Shown here one piece after another: positions 1-54,696 of a DNA stretch of 64,000 nt. Location: the NCBI RefSeq assembly GCF_023055435.1, contig NW_025964383.1, positions 47,740,001-47,804,000 on the forward strand. The letters are read 5' to 3'. Origin of the DNA: Haliotis rufescens. Its lineage: Eukaryota. Position 1 is the stretch's first letter. Every line of letters starts with the position of its first letter. Below the pieces are notes generated by a model. That model saw only the letters and a program-made list of their open reading frames with translations. It was not told the DNA's origin and did no database searches. The translations under genes were made by a program, and so were the position numbers.

Positions 1-290
1 CCTTATCGTTTCATTAGTACGACTGTTACAAAGTGTGAAGTTTTTTTGTTCCAATTATAAATGATTATTTCGAGATTAACATATCACAGTTGATTAAATG
101 TCACGCTAGTGACTTCATTGCGACTGTGTGTTTCTAAACATGGCGTGATATTTGTCCTGCCACGGTTCTAATTGTTGCCAATCACAGCACGCTTTACATC
201 CTCGCATTCCTCTGTAATACAACAATTACCCCGTCTGTGATCCCCGGACAAGCAGCGCCTGTGGGTGTGGATAGGGAAATAGCACTGCGT

Positions 291-484
291 GTGATGTGGT
301 ACTCCCTACAGCGACGGGAAGGTGGCGCTTTAACTTGTAACCTGCAGGGCTGGTGATGTGGTACTCCCTACAGCGACGGGAAGGTGGCGCTTTAACTGGT
401 AACCTGCAGGGCTGGTTGTGTGGTACTCCCTACAGCGACGGGAAGGTGGCGCTTTAACTGGTAACCTGCAGGGCTGGTTGTGTG
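291..484. repeat. Tandem repeat, ~61-62 bp x 3
   Basis: Unit gtgtggtactccctacagcgacgggaaggtggcgctttaactggtaacctgcagggctggtt. Confidence 0.9.
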
Positions 485-1196
485 ATCAGCCGGGTGAAGG
501 GATTGGCGTTGCCACTTCGGAATAATTTCTAACTGGAGAAAGTTACATTACAACTTTATGGAATTTGTAAACAGTAAAACACTTGTTATTATGGTTTGTT
601 TTTAGCAGATAAACAAACTTTTCACTATTACCTGTAGATTTAACCGTTCATATTGAATGTGGAAACAGACACAAATGAACTTAATCGCCCTTCATGACCA
701 AGTATGTGTGACAATACATGGAAATCGACTGAGAATGTGTGTTTAAAGTATTGGGAACCCCAGAGCTTGAAATTTGGCGCTTTTTCTACGGCCTACTGTG
801 ACGTCACTTTATTTAGTTTTTAATATATATTTCTCATGGTTGTGAACACGATTTTGAAGCTTCGAGTTAACCACAATGAGCTAACACCAAATAATACGCG
901 TTTAATTTTATCATGGTAGAATGGAGATGAATCCTAACTACAAGGAAAATGATTTTGTTTATGGCTTTCGCGGGTCTGTATGAAGAGTAAACAATGCAAC
1001 GTGTTCTTAAACAGTGTATTACTAAAATTAATGTGATAGATCTAGTTGCTGTATTGCCACTCTAGATAGCGTGGTGTACACATATACATTCTACTCCGTG
1101 TGTGCATCGATGATACCAGTATTGATACGTGTCTCTAAAATGTTTACGTGCTGTTCCTGTTTTACACATACCTCTCTGATTATGAACATGACACAT

Positions 1197-1470
1197 GTTT
1201 TTTTTTTGGTTTAGTTTGTTGTTTAACGATGCACTCAGCAATATTCCAGGTATATGACGGCGGTCTGTAAATAATCGAATCTGTACCAGATAATCCAGTG
1301 ATTAATACCATGAACATCGGTCCAAGCAATTGGGATCGATGACATGCATCAACCAAGTCGGCGAGCCTGACCACCCGATATCGTTAGTCCACCTCTTACG
1401 TCAAGCATAGTCGCCTTTCACGGCAAGCGTGGGTTGCTGAAGACCCATTCTAGCCCGGTTCTTCACCGGC
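1197..1470 (-). mobile_element. SINE-like family A (non-tRNA head), full-length
   Basis: Reverse complement matches the copies at 2655-2900 and 54438-54696: GTGAAGA..GGTCTTCAGCAACCC head and ...GGAATATTGCTGAGTGC..GTTAAACAACAAAC tail. Confidence 0.8.
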
Positions 1471-1782
1471 CGACTCAGATGCAACAATATTTAAATATGT
1501 AGTAAGTATGTGCACAGGAGAGTAATGAAAATGTGAAACGTGTATGTCCTTTTCACTATCAAACCGCCCTATATATAATTACACGTATACAGAGCCACCA
1601 CTCAAATGTGCACGCATGACCCCACATATGAGTGTCGTAAACAACTTAATAATGATGACTGCATTGTTACGTAATCGGCGTTGTAGACGGCCATGTGGTC
1701 TCAATGACCCTTTATGAGCTTATATATGTGATATAGTTTGAATATTCAAATGGGTCTAATCCCGATTGTTTCAGTAAATGAG

Positions 1783-2053
1783 TGAGTGAGTTGGGTTTAA
1801 CGCCGCTTTTAACAGTATTCCAGTTATATCACGGCGAGTCAGCTTAATGTGGGATGACAGCCCGAAGTGATGCAGGTCTCAGACGTTTACCACATCGACG
1901 AAACCCACGAGCACGGGTATGGTGCTGACAAACCTAGAAACATAATAGGGGCGAACCGGGATTTCCACAATCATAGGTTTCTGGCGTGCCCAAGGGACGC
2001 AACTCTGCAAAGCGAATCGCAGCGCCTTAGACGACAGGGCCACCCGTGCCCCC
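1783..2053 (-). mobile_element. tRNA-derived SINE family C (V-domain-like body)
   Basis: A-box-like GGTGGCCCTGTCGTCTAAGG on the - strand and (ACTC)n tail. 13-bp TSD ttcagtaaatgag (1770-1782) / ttcaataaatgag (2054-2066). Homologous to 23062-23342. Confidence 0.8.
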
Positions 2054-2498
2054 TTCAATAAATGAGATAGATTTATACATGTATTGTGTAGAACATCAAG
2101 ATATTATCCTATACATAATATCTGTATCTTTTTATCATCGTTGTACAAGATACGAGAGAAGATGAAAAACAGAAGAGGTGTACTCTTTGGGAGCAGTGTG
2201 TGATATTCAATCGTCAAATATACGTCTGTGTGCACCATCTATGACTTTTTTAAGGCTGCTCTTGTTTGCGCTGACGGGCCTAATGAACCTGGGGATTTAG
2301 AGTGTATGCTAATGAACTATGCACACTTGTCGCCTACTGCTCCAATCTTACACTTTACTGTTGTGCTATATCGGGAAATCATTCACCGTGTTAAAGGTTT
2401 TAGAACAAAGCATAACTGACAATATTTATCTTGTTTGTTTTTAATATGTTAACTTCATTCCTTTCTATGTATACAAAAGGATCGTATTATCTCCAGGG

Positions 2499-2900
2499 AC
2501 CCGTGAAGATCCGGGGTAGAACAGATCTTCAGCAACCCATGCTTGCTTCCACCCGTGAAGATCCGGGGTAGAACAGATCTTCAGCAACCCATGCTTGTCT
2601 CCACCCGTGAAGATCCGGGGTAGAACAGATCTTCAGCAAACCAAGCTTGTCTCCACCCGTGAAGATCCGGGGTAGAACAGATCTTCAGCAACCCAAGCTT
2701 GTCGTAAAATGCGACTATGCCTGTCGTAAGAGGTGACTAACAGGACCGGATGGTCAGACTCGCTGACTTTGTTGATACATGTCGATGTTCATGATGTCAA
2801 TCACTCGATTGTCTGTTCCAGACTCGATTATTTACAGGCCGCCGTCGTATAGCTGGAATATTGCTGAGTGCGGCGTTACACAAAAAAGAAACAAACAAAT
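2499..2900 (+). mobile_element. SINE-like family A with 52-bp head repeated 4 times
   Basis: ACCCGTGAAGATCCGGGGTAGAACAGATCTTCAGCAACCCATGCTTG starts at 2499, 2551, 2603 and 2655, followed by the normal body and an A/C-rich tail. Confidence 0.85.
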
Positions 2901-3272
2901 AATAAGGATAGTGTGCCTCTTCTCAAATAGGTACAAACATGCGTACTTCCGTGGATGATGTCCTAAATTGCCATGACGTCATGCGACAAGGTTTCAAAGC
3001 AATTATCCATTTGTGACCAACTCGTGCCATTCCGGGGCATGCTGAATAAGGTTACACAAGTTTCGAGTGGTGCCGAATGTTTTCTTGGAGGTTGCGGGAA
3101 TATGTGAGCGGTGACAAATGTCGTCTTGTAAGTACGGACAGAGGCGCGTCGTCACGAATGTAAGCACAGAGTAATGTACAAAATTATACAAGAAATATTG
3201 CATCTTTGTGATGACACATTCAAGTGAGTGAGTGAGTCCGTTTGGTGTCTGCTCTAGATTCGGGATTAATGC

Positions 3273-4530
3273 GTGAGTGAGTGAGATGTGAACAGCTAGT
3301 GTTCCAGTTATATCACGGCGTGTCAGCTTAATGTGGGAGTGAGTGAGATGTGAACAGCTAGTGTTCCAGTTATATCACGACGTGTCAGCTTAATGTGGGA
3401 GTGAGTGAGATGTGAACAGCTGGTGTTTCAGTTGTATCACGGCGTGTCAGCTTAATGTGGGAGTGAGTGAGATGTGAACAGCTAGTGTTTCAGTTATATC
3501 ATGACGTGTCAGCTTAATGTGGGAGTGAGTGAGATGTGAACAGCTAGTGTTTCAGTTGTATCACGGCGTGTCAGCTTAATGTGGGAGTGAGTGAGATGTG
3601 AACAGCTAGTGTTCCAGTTATATCACGGCGTGTCAGCTTAATGTGGGAGTGAGTGAGATGTGAACAGCTAGTGTTCCAGTTATATCACGACGTGTCAGCT
3701 TAATGTGGGAGTGAGTGAGATGTGAACAGCTGGTGTTTCAGTTGTATCACGGCGTGTCAGCTTAATGTGGGAGTGAGTGAGATGTGAACAGCTAGTGTTT
3801 CAGTTATATCACGACGTGTCAGCTTAATGTGGGAGTGAGTGAGATGTGAACAGCTAGTGTTTCAGTTGTATCACGGCGTGTCAGCTTAATGTGGGAGCGA
3901 GTGAGATGTGAACAGCTGGTGTTTCAGTTGTATCACGGCGTGTCAGCTTAATGTGGGAGTGAGTGAGATGTGAACAGCTGGTGTTTCAGTTGTATCACGG
4001 CGTGTCAGCTTAATGTGGGAGTGAGTGAGATGTGAACAGCTAGTGTTTCAGTTGTATCACGGCGTGTCAGCTTAATGTGGGAGTGAGTGAGTGAGATGTG
4101 AACAGCTAGTGTTTCAGTTGTATCACGACGTGTCAGCTTAATGTGGGAGTGAGTGAGATGTGAACAGCTGGTGTTTCAGTTATATCACGACGTGTCAGCT
4201 TAATGTGGGAGTGAGTGAGATGTGAACAGCTAGTGTTCCAGTTATATCACGACGTGTCAGCTTAATGTGGGAGTGAGTGAGATGTGAACAGCTAGTGTTC
4301 CAGTTATATCACGACGTGTCAGCTTAATGTGGGAGTGAGTGAGATGTGAACAGCTAGTGTTCCAGTTATATCACGGCGTGTCAGCTTAATGTGGGAGTGA
4401 GTGAGATGTGAACAGCTAGTGTTTCAGTTATATCACGGCGTGTCAGCTTAATGTGGGAGTGAGTGAGATGTGAACAGCTAGTGTTTCAGATATATCACGA
4501 CGTGTCAGCTTAATGTGGGAGTGAGTGAGA
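3273..4530. repeat. Minisatellite, 62-bp unit x ~20, derived from the family C SINE 3' end
   Basis: Unit gagtgagtgagatgtgaacagctagtgttccagttatatcacggcgtgtcagcttaatgtgg matches the family C tail at ~1780-1855. Confidence 0.92.
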
Positions 4531-4668
4531 GGTTTACCGCTTTGGTGCTGACAAACCGAGACACATAGTCAGGGCGAATCTGGTATTCAGACCCACGATT
4601 GTGGATGTCTGGTACGCTAAAAGGGGACGCAACTCTGACCAGCAAATAGCGTGCCGCAGACGACTGCA
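4531..4668 (-). mobile_element. Remainder (body and head) of the family C SINE whose tail was amplified
   Basis: tggtgctgacaaacc...agggcgaatc...gggacgcaactctg...agacgac aligns with 1920-2036. Confidence 0.7.
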
Positions 4669-5299
4669 GTCAAATCACGGCACACTAGTCAAATCACAGG
4701 TCACCAGTCAAATCACAGGTCACCAGTCAAGTAAAATCACCAGTTGTTCAGTTAAAGCGACCAATAAGCTGATGTTCACGGATGCTGATGCTGTTATAAT
4801 ACAGCGGTTAAATAATCCGGGAATGACAAACTGGTGGTTGATGGAATGACGAACGATACACGCCGTCGGAGTACGATGTCGCTCAGCTACCTACGTCACA
4901 GATTGCTATAACCTAATCCTCAATTGTCGACTCCTACTAAAAGCATTTTATACCAGCGGCGTTATGCCATGCAGTAAACGGTTAAGCCTGTGAAGACGTT
5001 TACCAGTCCGATCAGTTAGGCTTCGATGGCAAATGTGGCTTATGGATCATAGGATTGATTAATCTTGTATAATGTTCTGTCGGTAGAGCTGTCGTTTTCA
5101 TATAATCCTGTAAATGTGTTAATAAAGGTGCTTGAGTGTTCGTTTTCGGATGCAATATGACATGATGTTTATCTAGCAAAATGACGCGACTGGATAGCTA
5201 ATCGGATTACATTTCTTTAAAATCTACGCGTTTTACTAAGAAAACGACTCAGTTGTCAGATTATGTCTGAAGCGGAGCTCCGTATGGCAGGTCCCGCTA

Positions 5300-17437: not shown

Positions 17438-17545
17438 TTTGAGTCAATTACTGGATTGTCTGGTCCAGGCTTGATTATTCACAGACTGCCATCATATAGC
17501 TGGAATATTGCTGAGTGCGCCGTTTAACAACAAACACAACAAAAT
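17438..17545 (+). mobile_element. 5'-truncated family A copy
   Basis: gtcaattactggattgtctggtccaggcttgattattcacagactgccatcatatagctggaatattgctgagtgcgccgtttaacaacaaac. Confidence 0.7.
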
Positions 17546-23061: not shown

Positions 23062-23342
23062 GGGGGGGGGGGGGGGACATGGGTGGCCCAGTCATCTAAG
23101 GCACCGTGATTCGCTGTGCAGAGTTGTGTCCCTTGGGCATGCCAGAAACCTATTAATTGTGGGTTCAAATCCCGGTTTGTTTCTAGGTTTGTCAGCACCA
23201 TACTCGTGCTTGTTGGTTTCACCGAAGTGGTAAATGTCTAAGACCTGCATCACTTCGGGCTTTCCTCCCACATTAAGCTGACACGCCGTGATATAACTGG
23301 AATACTGTTAAAAGAAGCCTTAACCCCAACTCACTCACTCAC
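23062..23342 (+). mobile_element. tRNA-derived SINE family C, full-length
   Basis: A box GGTGGCCCAGTCATCTAAGG, B box GGGTTCAAATCCC, (ACTC)n tail. 12-bp TSD ttatcctattaa (23048-23059) / ttatcatattaa (23343-23354). Confidence 0.85.
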
Positions 23343-23969
23343 TTATCATATTAAGCAATTTGGGGATTTGAACTGGGTCATTTTCGAAAAGAATATGTTT
23401 GTGGTTTTCTATGTGATATGACATTCATTTATCACACACTGCCATTTGACATGATAGTTCATATTGAAATGAATTTTCCGTGTCATAAAAGTGATCCTTG
23501 AGCGTGCAACATCAGACAGTTTCAGCTTATTTATGACTCACTTCAGTGTTAAGAAGGACCTGGAAGAGTTTAGTCGAACATGTGCCCAGATCAATTCTTT
23601 CATGTTGGGCTTTGAAGTGGCTTCAAAACACCAGCATTATTTTGTGTTGATGGTAATTGGTTATGAACAAGAGATATGTTGTTGGCTGCGGAGGCTGACA
23701 TGATGCTGGCTGGAAATTGACCTTTCCTCATCACAAAAAGGATCTGCTGATTTCTGGATTTCCGTGTTTTTTTAGATAATGGTTAATAAAGTTATATATT
23801 TAGCTGTATTGTTCAGATGTGTCAGGTTGGGCTGTGTATTACATGGCTGGATGGGGCAGATTGTGTTTGGTGTGAGGTGCGGGCTGGGTTATATATACTG
23901 TTCTACTGTATGAGAACCCTCTAACGAAACATTGCTCTGCTACTTGAGGCTTCTTTCTGTAGTGGGTGG

Positions 23970-50679: not shown

Positions 50680-50913
50680 GACCCGGGAAGACCTGGGTTA
50701 AAATAAGTTTTCAAATATGCTTGTCTAAAGGGGCAACCCATGGGATCAGGTAGTCAGGCTTGCTCACTTGGTCGATGCATGTCATTGTATCCCAAATGTG
50801 TGGATCGATGCTCATGATGTCAATCACTGGATTGTTTGGTCTGACTCGATTATTTACAGACCGCCGTCATATAGCTGGAATATTGCTCTGTGTGACGTTC
50901 AACAACAAACAAA
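50680..50913 (+). mobile_element. Family A copy, diverged
   Basis: gacccgggaagacctgggttaaaataag...gatcgatgctcatgatgtcaatcactggattg...gctggaatattgct...aacaacaaacaaa. Confidence 0.75.
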
Positions 50914-51711
50914 GAATCAAACACTTTGTTGATCTTTTGTCTTGCTGCTAGGTCAGCATTAATTTCCTTGAAAGAATAATGGAGGTTAAATATTCACTAA
51001 GTTTTCTTGACTTACATGTGGAGCCAGGGCTTTACTAATACACTGATAATTGTCTTTTTATTGTAGTCTGTTAACATGTCATGTGGATTCTGGGTTCAAT
51101 CCAATATTGCATCATGGAATAATCGGTAACTGGTAACTCACGATCTACCAATTTTCTAATCCCCTATGTGTTCTCCATAGGTAAGTAGCTGGGATAGGTC
51201 CATGTGATGCTTAACGAGTGACTTCATTGTCAGTCACAGGGGTATTGTTCCCGTCCTGTGTCTTCATCAGTCCTCTTTGCACGGTGAAATCAGTGCCATA
51301 CAGTACATTAACTGTTTGTCTGAATGCTGGGGATCTCGGTGCTCGTGTGCGTTGCCGATGATCGTTTTCGCCAGTCAGGCGTAAATAGCCAAAGTCCCCC
51401 CATCAATGATTCATGCCCAGTGCTGTAAGTATCCCAGATGAAACTGACAATGATCTATAGACGGAAATCAATTTTGCAATTGACGATCCTCATGCCCCCA
51501 GTGGCTAATTGGATTGTGGGTGACTTCATCGGTGACCTCTCCAGGCAAAAGGATTTGACAAGGAGTAGATCATGTGACATGACGGACACATTTTTGTCTG
51601 ATTCCCCATCGGCAATTAGTGTAATTTGGTGCAGATTGGCGAGATGGTGTAATACACCACATAGTTGTGTTAGTGACCCAGACAGGTCAGTGCAGTCACA
51701 GCATCATGGGA

Positions 51712-52303
51712 GCCATGACGATCGAGGTTAGAGTAGGTCTTCAGCAACCCATGCTTGTCTCCTCCCATGAAGATCTGGGTTAGAATAGGTCTTCAGCAAC
51801 CCATGCTTGTCTCCTCCCATGAAGATCTGGGTTAGAACAGGTCTTCAGCAACCCATGCTTGTCTCCTCCAATGAAGATCGAGGTTAGAATAGGTCTTCAG
51901 CAACCCATGCTTGTCTTCCATGAAGATCTGGGTTAGAATAGGTCTTCAGTAACCCATGCTTGTCTCCTCCAATGAAGATCGAGGTTAGAATAGGTCTTCA
52001 GCAACCCATGCTTGTTTCCTCAGGTGAAGATTGAGGTTAGAATAGGTCTTCAGCAACCCATGATTGTTGGAAGACGTGACAATACTTGTCGTAAGACGTG
52101 ACTATGCTTGTCGGAAGACGCGAATAAAAGGATCTAGTGCTGATACTCAGTGACCTGGTTGATGTGTGTCATCATAGCCCAGTTGCATAGATCGATGCTC
52201 ATGATGTCAATCACTGGATTGTCTGGCCCAGACAGACTGCTGTGTATCTGCAATATTGCTGAGTGTGGCTTTAAAACAACAAACAAACAATCAAATAAAC
52301 AAC
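51712..52303 (+). mobile_element. Family A copy with ~52-bp head repeated ~7 times
   Basis: ccatgaagatctgggttagaataggtcttcagcaacccatgcttgtctcctc repeated from 51713 to ~52065, then body and (AAAC)n tail. Confidence 0.85.
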
Positions 52304-54437: not shown

Positions 54438-54696
54438 TCTTTGTTGTTTAAAGCCACACTCAGCAATATTCCAGCTATATGACGGCGGTCTGTAAATAAT
54501 CAAGCCTGGACTAGACAATCCTGTGATTCACATCATGACCATTGGTCCACGCATTTAGGATACCATGACCTGCATCAACCATGTCAGCGAGGCTGCCCCC
54601 CCCGATCCTGTTAGTCGCCTCTTACGACAAGCACAGTCGCTTTTTACGACAAGCATGGTTTGCTGGAGACCTATTCTCGCTGGATCTTCATGGGTC
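54438..54696 (-). mobile_element. Family A copy, full-length
   Basis: - strand head GACCCATGAAGATCCAGCGAGAATAGGTCTCCAGCAAACCATGCTTGTCG... Probable TSD tttctctggt (54421-54430 / 54699-54708). Confidence 0.82.

Follow-up and report, generated by a model that had tools for sequence, protein, structure and literature searches.

The 64-kb stretch of Haliotis rufescens DNA analysed here, referred to as the window, contains six copies of a retroposon (Table 1), five with a head, at the positions where a first-pass annotation had located them, and a sixth without. The element is a ~260-nt SINE flanked by target-site duplications (TSDs) and belongs to the LP ('LINE promoter') type known from the literature: it is short, ends in a LINE-like tail with a terminal tandem repeat, and carries in place of a tRNA head a ~70-nt LINE 5'-UTR head, a motif found in the 5' UTRs of two-ORF APE-RT LINEs. 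A TSD was detected for one of the six window copies. The absence of A and B boxes noted in the first-pass annotation was borne out, with no regular-expression match in one near-consensus SINE copy and no tRNA gene predicted by ARAGORN in the window, and the head, which has neither these boxes nor tRNA or 5S homology, is not an ordinary tRNA- or 5S-derived one. The window is also very rich in minisatellites of 29-68 nt. Another SINE family, whose head looks tRNA-like by eye, is present at 1775-2053 and 23073-23345, and its tail seeded a 62-nt minisatellite at 3266-4530.

Table 1. Copies of the LP-type SINE in the window and predicted parts of the complete head (window positions)
Feature	Position	Strand	Basis or score
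Second full SINE copy	1199..1470	-	R2, 34 bits
Three tandem 52-nt partial head monomers	2499..2654	+	TRF
Complete SINE head, predicted double pseudoknot with duplicated hairpin	2655..2745	+	Model R2
Pseudoknot 1 (predicted)	2655..2686	+	Covariation across lineages
Helix A; 1-nt loop U 2660	2656-2659 with 2668-2671	+	
Helix B, 7 bp; conserved AGAA-rich loop 2673-2679	2661-2667 with 2680-2686	+	
Pseudoknot 2 (predicted)	2687..2745	+	Covariation; TRF
Helix D	2687-2690 with 2696-2699	+	
Helix C, CCC paired to the G-run that follows CUAA	2692-2694 with 2741-2745	+	
Hairpins enclosed by pseudoknot 2 (22-nt duplication)	2700-2715 and 2722-2737	+	
SINE body, LINE-like 3' tail and CAAA-type terminal repeat	2746..2902	+	Alignment
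5'-truncated copy, tail only	17443..17545	+	
Diverged copy, internal deletion in head	50681..50921	+	R2, not detected
Copy bearing an array of 6.9 head monomers in tandem (51713-52067, TRF)	51712..52300	+	
Full copy, 12-13-nt target-site duplication (1 mismatch)	54438..54696	-	R2, 46 bits

The head that had been annotated from 2499 onwards is present, but 2499-2703 consists of tandem partial heads (3.9 copies of period 52 by TRF) and the complete head is the one further downstream. The partial monomers up to 2654 comprise the first pseudoknot and the start of the second, without the hairpin and without the closing strand. Model R2, built from 14 non-viral sequences, none of them of this genome, gives 2655-2728 a score of 50 bits, and helices D and C each contain one mismatch in this copy. 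Likewise, the proposed consensus captured a real head but omitted the 22-nt duplication of the hairpin module which is present in most copies of this SINE family. SINE-head monomers form long arrays at many other genomic loci also, with up to about 20 units per fetched locus.

The element is not a chance pattern, as exact matches to a 19-mer of the head number 44,779 in the genome, tandem monomers counted in, versus none for the reversed control, and as copies occur in samples taken at fixed positions, 18 of them (10 full with head) in 19 samples of 10 kb (190 kb). Genome-wide it is a ~260-nt repeat with target-site duplications, scored in 8/21 and 13/24 rows, and a CAAA/CCAA tail. In this genome and in four metagenome families the SINE starts 0-2 nt before helix A. 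The ACCC at the start of the head is preceded by G in 17,038 of 22,932 exact heads (74%), and the first base is mostly A or G in metagenome families F0-F2.

Element and head sequence have been known since 2016 (PMC4758252). The accessible part of that paper describes LP SINEs from abalone, periwinkle and oysters, named Hdi_LP/Hmi_LP, Lsa_2 and Sgl_LP, with the same non-tRNA, ~70-nt LINE-derived head, which occurs also in the pectinoid MESC SINEs and is common to the 5' ends of Nimb-17_LMi, I-3_DR and RTE-9_CPB; a motif at the 5' ends of invertebrate LINEs, named in the first-pass annotation, is thereby supported, as it is by the LINE loci described below. The scallop head in its supplement shows the same conserved 3' motif, on the grounds of which the element was filed as an LP-type SINE, and, by eye, the same helices composed of other bases; the scallop segment with Nimb-17 homology also matches the head by eye (PMC4758252). 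The SINE is presumably Hdi_LP/Hmi_LP; the published Hmi_LP consensus has 255 bp versus the ~260 nt of the copies here (PMC4758252). Unlike the LP SINEs in the published portions consulted, the family in this genome possesses the 22-nt duplication and tandem head arrays. The head was presumed to be a promoter, with an analogy to the L1Tc promoter/ribozyme mentioned, and the available text contains neither a structure nor a viral occurrence nor a partner LINE (PMC4758252).

Homologous heads from elsewhere allowed the structure to be addressed by covariation. An exact search with a head 17-mer retrieved at least 120 metagenome loci and five viral contigs, to which looser patterns added two viral loci and three host-like stretches in symbiont assemblies. 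Among the 123 non-viral loci listed, 116 had flanks sufficient for clustering and fell into four families of 12-31 copies and many singletons. The covariation set comprised 20 lineages, namely 13 retroelements, the SINE of this genome, five RNA-virus-like contigs and one DNA virus, and each 5' strand, cut out at anchors, was paired with its own 3' strand versus the 3' strands of other lineages in a permutation test. The resulting values are to be read with 5' anchors set by eye, about four mis-registered rows retained, several families related to each other and, for helix C, a slide of 2 nt permitted in test and control alike. Over the 20 lineages, helix A, formed by the 5'-terminal CCCG and the start of the first loop, is supported at p 0.0005, and helices B (7 bp), D (4 bp) and C, which joins the loop of D to the bases after CUAA, at p 0.00005 or less. 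When 14 non-viral sequences, none from this genome, were aligned with MAFFT, 88.9% of cells paired versus 78.7% when shuffled and 33-45% when slid, with 9 of 19 pairs changed on both sides (helix C left out). These compensatory changes point to selection on RNA pairing.

The stems GAAGATC/GATCTTC, AGCA/TGCT and GTCG..CGAC noted in the first-pass annotation exist as described. Its two longer-range pairings fared differently, as neither the GGGT/ACCC pseudoknot (p 0.37) nor the CCCGT/ACGGG closure (p 0.67) is supported by covariation; the partners are swapped. The predicted ~70-nt fold accordingly consists of two tandem, adjacent H-type pseudoknots, with the conserved hairpin inside the second. 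A 7-bp stem crossed by one nucleotide, together with a second loop rich in A, has the classic geometry of an H-type pseudoknot. The covariation is compatible with a coexisting double pseudoknot as well as with a two-state switch between A+C and B+D and cannot separate the two. The hairpin, with a loop of the UAAGAGG type, was part of the search pattern and for that reason is invariant in the 14-sequence alignment; LINE heads show a variable hairpin loop and a stem longer by a G-C or G-U pair, and in them helix D is AGCA or AGCC opposite UGCU and CUAA may be replaced by CCAA, CCGA, CCUA or CUGA. The loops of the module are conserved in sequence. Nested folding energy is unremarkable (z -0.6 for the window head), and the fold is not in Rfam, positions 1-5000 of the window being without a match up to E 5. 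Motif occurrence in LINE 5' UTRs, covariation and the lack of tRNA or 5S homology together uphold the annotated notion of a conserved, structured, LINE-derived head of non-tRNA origin.

An autonomous partner became apparent through L355/L428, a LINE with the motif ahead of ORF1. It belongs to animal retroelement DNA (L353-L355, L428) observed in three bacterial-symbiont assemblies; L428 is a whole LINE with frames of 521 and 1238 aa within a 537-kb scaffold, no TSD was found for it, and it is probably host sequence assembled in. The endonuclease of this LINE has at least 150 relatives in this genome, 20 of which (L356-L375), picked for long open frames, were fetched. They encode an ORF1 that in most cases measures about 450-500 aa and that has a CCHC knuckle in the one copy inspected, and an ORF2 of about 1230 aa comprising APE, RT and RNase H domains. 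The LINEs probably belong to the Nimb clade. Nimb elements serve as SINE partners in bivalves according to a study which, in the text available, does not discuss LP heads (PMC11481361). The motif lies within range in 19 of the 20 LINEs. The SINE tail finds its best match in the last 55 nt of the LINE in 20/20 copies when compared with other windows, and 0-1 of 500 shuffles match the LINE ends equally well. The exact partner subfamily of the SINE was not found among the LINEs seen, which end in ACTC repeats while the SINE ends in CAAA/CCAA. Several LINE copies (L357, L367, L371) are apparently inserted in copies of the same LINE.

The LINE starts 57-59 nt upstream of the motif, and in intact LINEs of this genome the motif is located directly behind a predicted HDV-like ribozyme. 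The first 57 nt fit the HDV-like fold and begin at the insertion boundary, with a 7-bp P1 containing G1-U, P2, a 3-bp P3, an L3 of the UCCUCG type, GG for P1.1 and GCUAA as J4/2; P1 (7/7) and P2 (6/6) are complete in 21/21 LINE heads and P3 (3/3) in 20/21, and as the 21 heads are near-identical, this part provides no covariation. The Rfam model HDV-F-prausnitzii matches the LINE start with 26 bits (E 0.0035), below its gathering threshold of 44. A TSD abuts G1 in 16 of 18 LINE copies, three of which have a shared G. The family is abundant, with 893 exact head 17-mers genome-wide, intact and two-ORF, and its ribozyme is minimal with almost no P4; the 7 nt upstream of the motif are kept in 853 of the 893 heads (95.5%). 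Nimb/I-clade LINEs are absent from a 2018 list of ribozyme-bearing clades, and a report of an HDV-like ribozyme ahead of the motif in Nimb-clade elements was not found in open-access text. The SINE head, in contrast, does not fit HDV, in agreement with the first-pass annotation: it lacks P3/L3 and the order P1-P2-P3/L3-P1'-P1.1-P4-J4/2-P2', and only 12 nt lie within its 7-bp stem. Upstream of SINE-type heads, HDV-like sequence had two matches versus three in the control.

The motif is equally recognized in viruses. With model R2 the RNA-virus-like contigs L348, L035, L031, L033 and L032/L034 reach 41-66 bits and L347, a DNA-virus contig of 212 kb, reaches 56 bits, compared to at most 21 bits for loci with a chance core match only. 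In all five RNA-virus-like contigs the motif is on the sense strand, 6-101 nt past the last stop codon. Pfam identifies RdRP_3 in L033 and L035, RdRP_4/1 in L348 and a tetravirus-type capsid in L032, and no family for the 934-aa frame of L031, in which the motif is in tandem, the second copy being cut by the contig end. Contig L347 carries an intact motif between two genes at 2982-3055, 143 nt before an in-frame ATG, and no similar phage record exists for this region. A loose viral pattern returned chance phage matches only, with the first-pseudoknot descriptor fitting 0 of 120; with a 16-mer pattern it fitted 2 of 48, both loci already known. Rfam gave one chance-level match on five viral loci.

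Since the covariation yields a specific fold and the motif occurs in the 3' UTRs of RNA viruses, the LP head most likely works as RNA, which ties the 5'-end biology of retrotransposons to viral 3'-UTR elements. We tentatively read the head as a LINE-derived RNA module which quite plausibly acts as a roadblock for 5'-to-3' exonucleases, similar to an exonuclease-resistant RNA (xrRNA). Such a roadblock would set and protect the SINE 5' end without a tRNA promoter: Xrn1/Xrn2 would digest host Pol II read-through transcripts of SINE copies as far as the module, and the unit-length RNA would be reverse-transcribed by the ORF2 protein of a Nimb-like LINE via the shared 3' tail. In the LINE itself the module would give a second protection to the uncapped RNA produced by ribozyme cutting, while in viruses it would give rise to a 3' noncoding subgenomic RNA. 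The 5'-OH end left by a ribozyme is not a substrate of Xrn1, and a block therefore fits all places of the motif; it is the only reading which accommodates the SINE 5' ends, the internal place in the LINE and the viral 3' UTRs together. The location after the last viral stop codon, in tandem in L031, supports a block, as xrRNAs occur at the start of viral 3' UTRs and sometimes in tandem according to the accessible sections of two studies (PMC10520033, PMC11702639). If a roadblock, the head would add a new module of small size to those that stabilise RNA, and the start of a retroposon could be defined in a third manner, besides Pol III promoters and ribozymes.

Viral xrRNAs such as flaviviral classes 1-2, class 3 and coremin are likewise compact pseudoknotted RNAs which open viral 3' UTRs, and coremin shares with the module a GUC/GAC stem and, after it, a spacer rich in A, as far as the available text describes it (PMC10520033). 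The module differs from them in having neither a three-way junction nor the class-3 or coremin consensus. Judged by sequence, the coremin consensus fails, as a 4-bp hairpin with a YGAD/YGNNAD loop, spacer and second hairpin, as defined in the consulted part of the description (PMC10520033), is not what the module with its UAAGAGG-type loop presents. Known xrRNAs require a ring around the 5' end, as stated in the portions accessible (PMC11702639), and a plain H-type pseudoknot, as predicted at the 5' end of the module, would not evidently form one. Hardly any LINE insertion begins at the motif, so LINE copies do not record trimming to it, and the purine starts and the G before ACCC fit transcription initiation or cap copying equally. 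Small-RNA reads from a related species, 32 on the SINE and 53, mostly antisense, on the LINE, show no sense pile-up at the SINE or LINE start and are too few to weigh in either direction. No report of xrRNAs at retroelement 5' ends was found in open-access text, and neither was a description of the fold, of its viral occurrence or of the arrangement of ribozyme plus motif.

Alternatively, the module could be a cap-independent translation enhancer of the TSS kind, binding ribosomes or factors and serving uncapped LINE and viral RNAs, a reading that is possible but somewhat doubtful. By analogy, the SINE would sit on ribosomes making the ORF2 protein, as is the case for Alu. The T-shaped structure (TSS) of Turnip crinkle virus, a tRNA-sized 3'CITE in the 3' UTR, near the viral 3' end, which binds 60S/80S ribosomes, consists of two coaxial H-type pseudoknots and a hairpin, and in the accessible account the module has the same qualitative topology, with a hairpin loop pairing upstream, an adjacent second pseudoknot and a third hairpin (PMC5336357). 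This likeness is one of topology: the third hairpin of the module is much shorter, with 4-5 bp, its ~70 nt compare with a TSS core of ~100 nt, its loops are conserved in sequence, and it resides at retroelement 5' ends. Sequence-conserved loops would suit a binding surface, and the tombus-type RdRP_3 in two viral hosts, the place directly behind a predicted ribozyme expected to leave an uncapped end, and the DNA-virus motif ending shortly before an in-frame ATG would equally agree with enhancement. The exact motif starts of many SINE families and of three published LINE consensuses, on the other hand, would stay unexplained. Roadblock and translation enhancer can coexist.

An internal DNA promoter derived from the LINE 5' UTR, as in the original LP hypothesis (PMC4758252, in the part available), with an RNA fold that is secondary or in dual use as in L1Tc Pr77, would account for the missing A/B boxes and for the sharp, mostly purine starts with their frequent G, as expected from cap copying. 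We consider it unlikely: the compensatory changes speak for selection on RNA pairing, LINE RNA in this genome starts upstream of the motif, an extra G before A is neither seen nor enriched in families F0 and F3, and, as RNA viruses lack a DNA stage, a DNA promoter cannot explain the occurrence in RNA-virus contigs. A new self-cleaving ribozyme cutting at its own 5' edge is highly improbable despite the sharp 5' boundary, the conserved U-G opening the 7-bp stem and the CUAA after the hairpin, which are reminiscent of HDV J4/2, since cutting would cost the LINEs their upstream 57 nt, which nearly all of them keep, the same LINE already has a predicted canonical HDV-like ribozyme, CUAA varies in LINE heads, cleavage within the 3' UTR of a virus would detach its 3' end, and no Rfam ribozyme matches. 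Both suggestions of the first-pass annotation, ribozyme and promoter, are thus weakened; the motif is probably neither a cleaving ribozyme nor a fixed-start promoter, because LINE copies start upstream of it, at the predicted HDV-like ribozyme. To all other explanations together we assign a slim chance.

Extending the exonuclease-roadblock reading, a new, double-pseudoknot class of xrRNAs might have passed between animal LINEs, RNA viruses and a DNA virus and might allow an entire group of SINEs to do without a promoter, their unit-length RNA being cut from host read-through transcripts where Xrn1/Xrn2 stall at the head, a scenario we put forward with considerable reservation. Variants of the element extend the range of contexts of the head. 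At L436:1282-1351 on the minus strand, a diverged element differs in stem sequence but has the motif and begins its body in a similar way; it may represent an older LP family of this genome. In metagenome family F3, such as at L113, the head is followed by an apparent tRNA-derived A-box segment, as in the scallop MESC SINEs, and in family F2 a loop of 77 nt is tolerated within pseudoknot 1.
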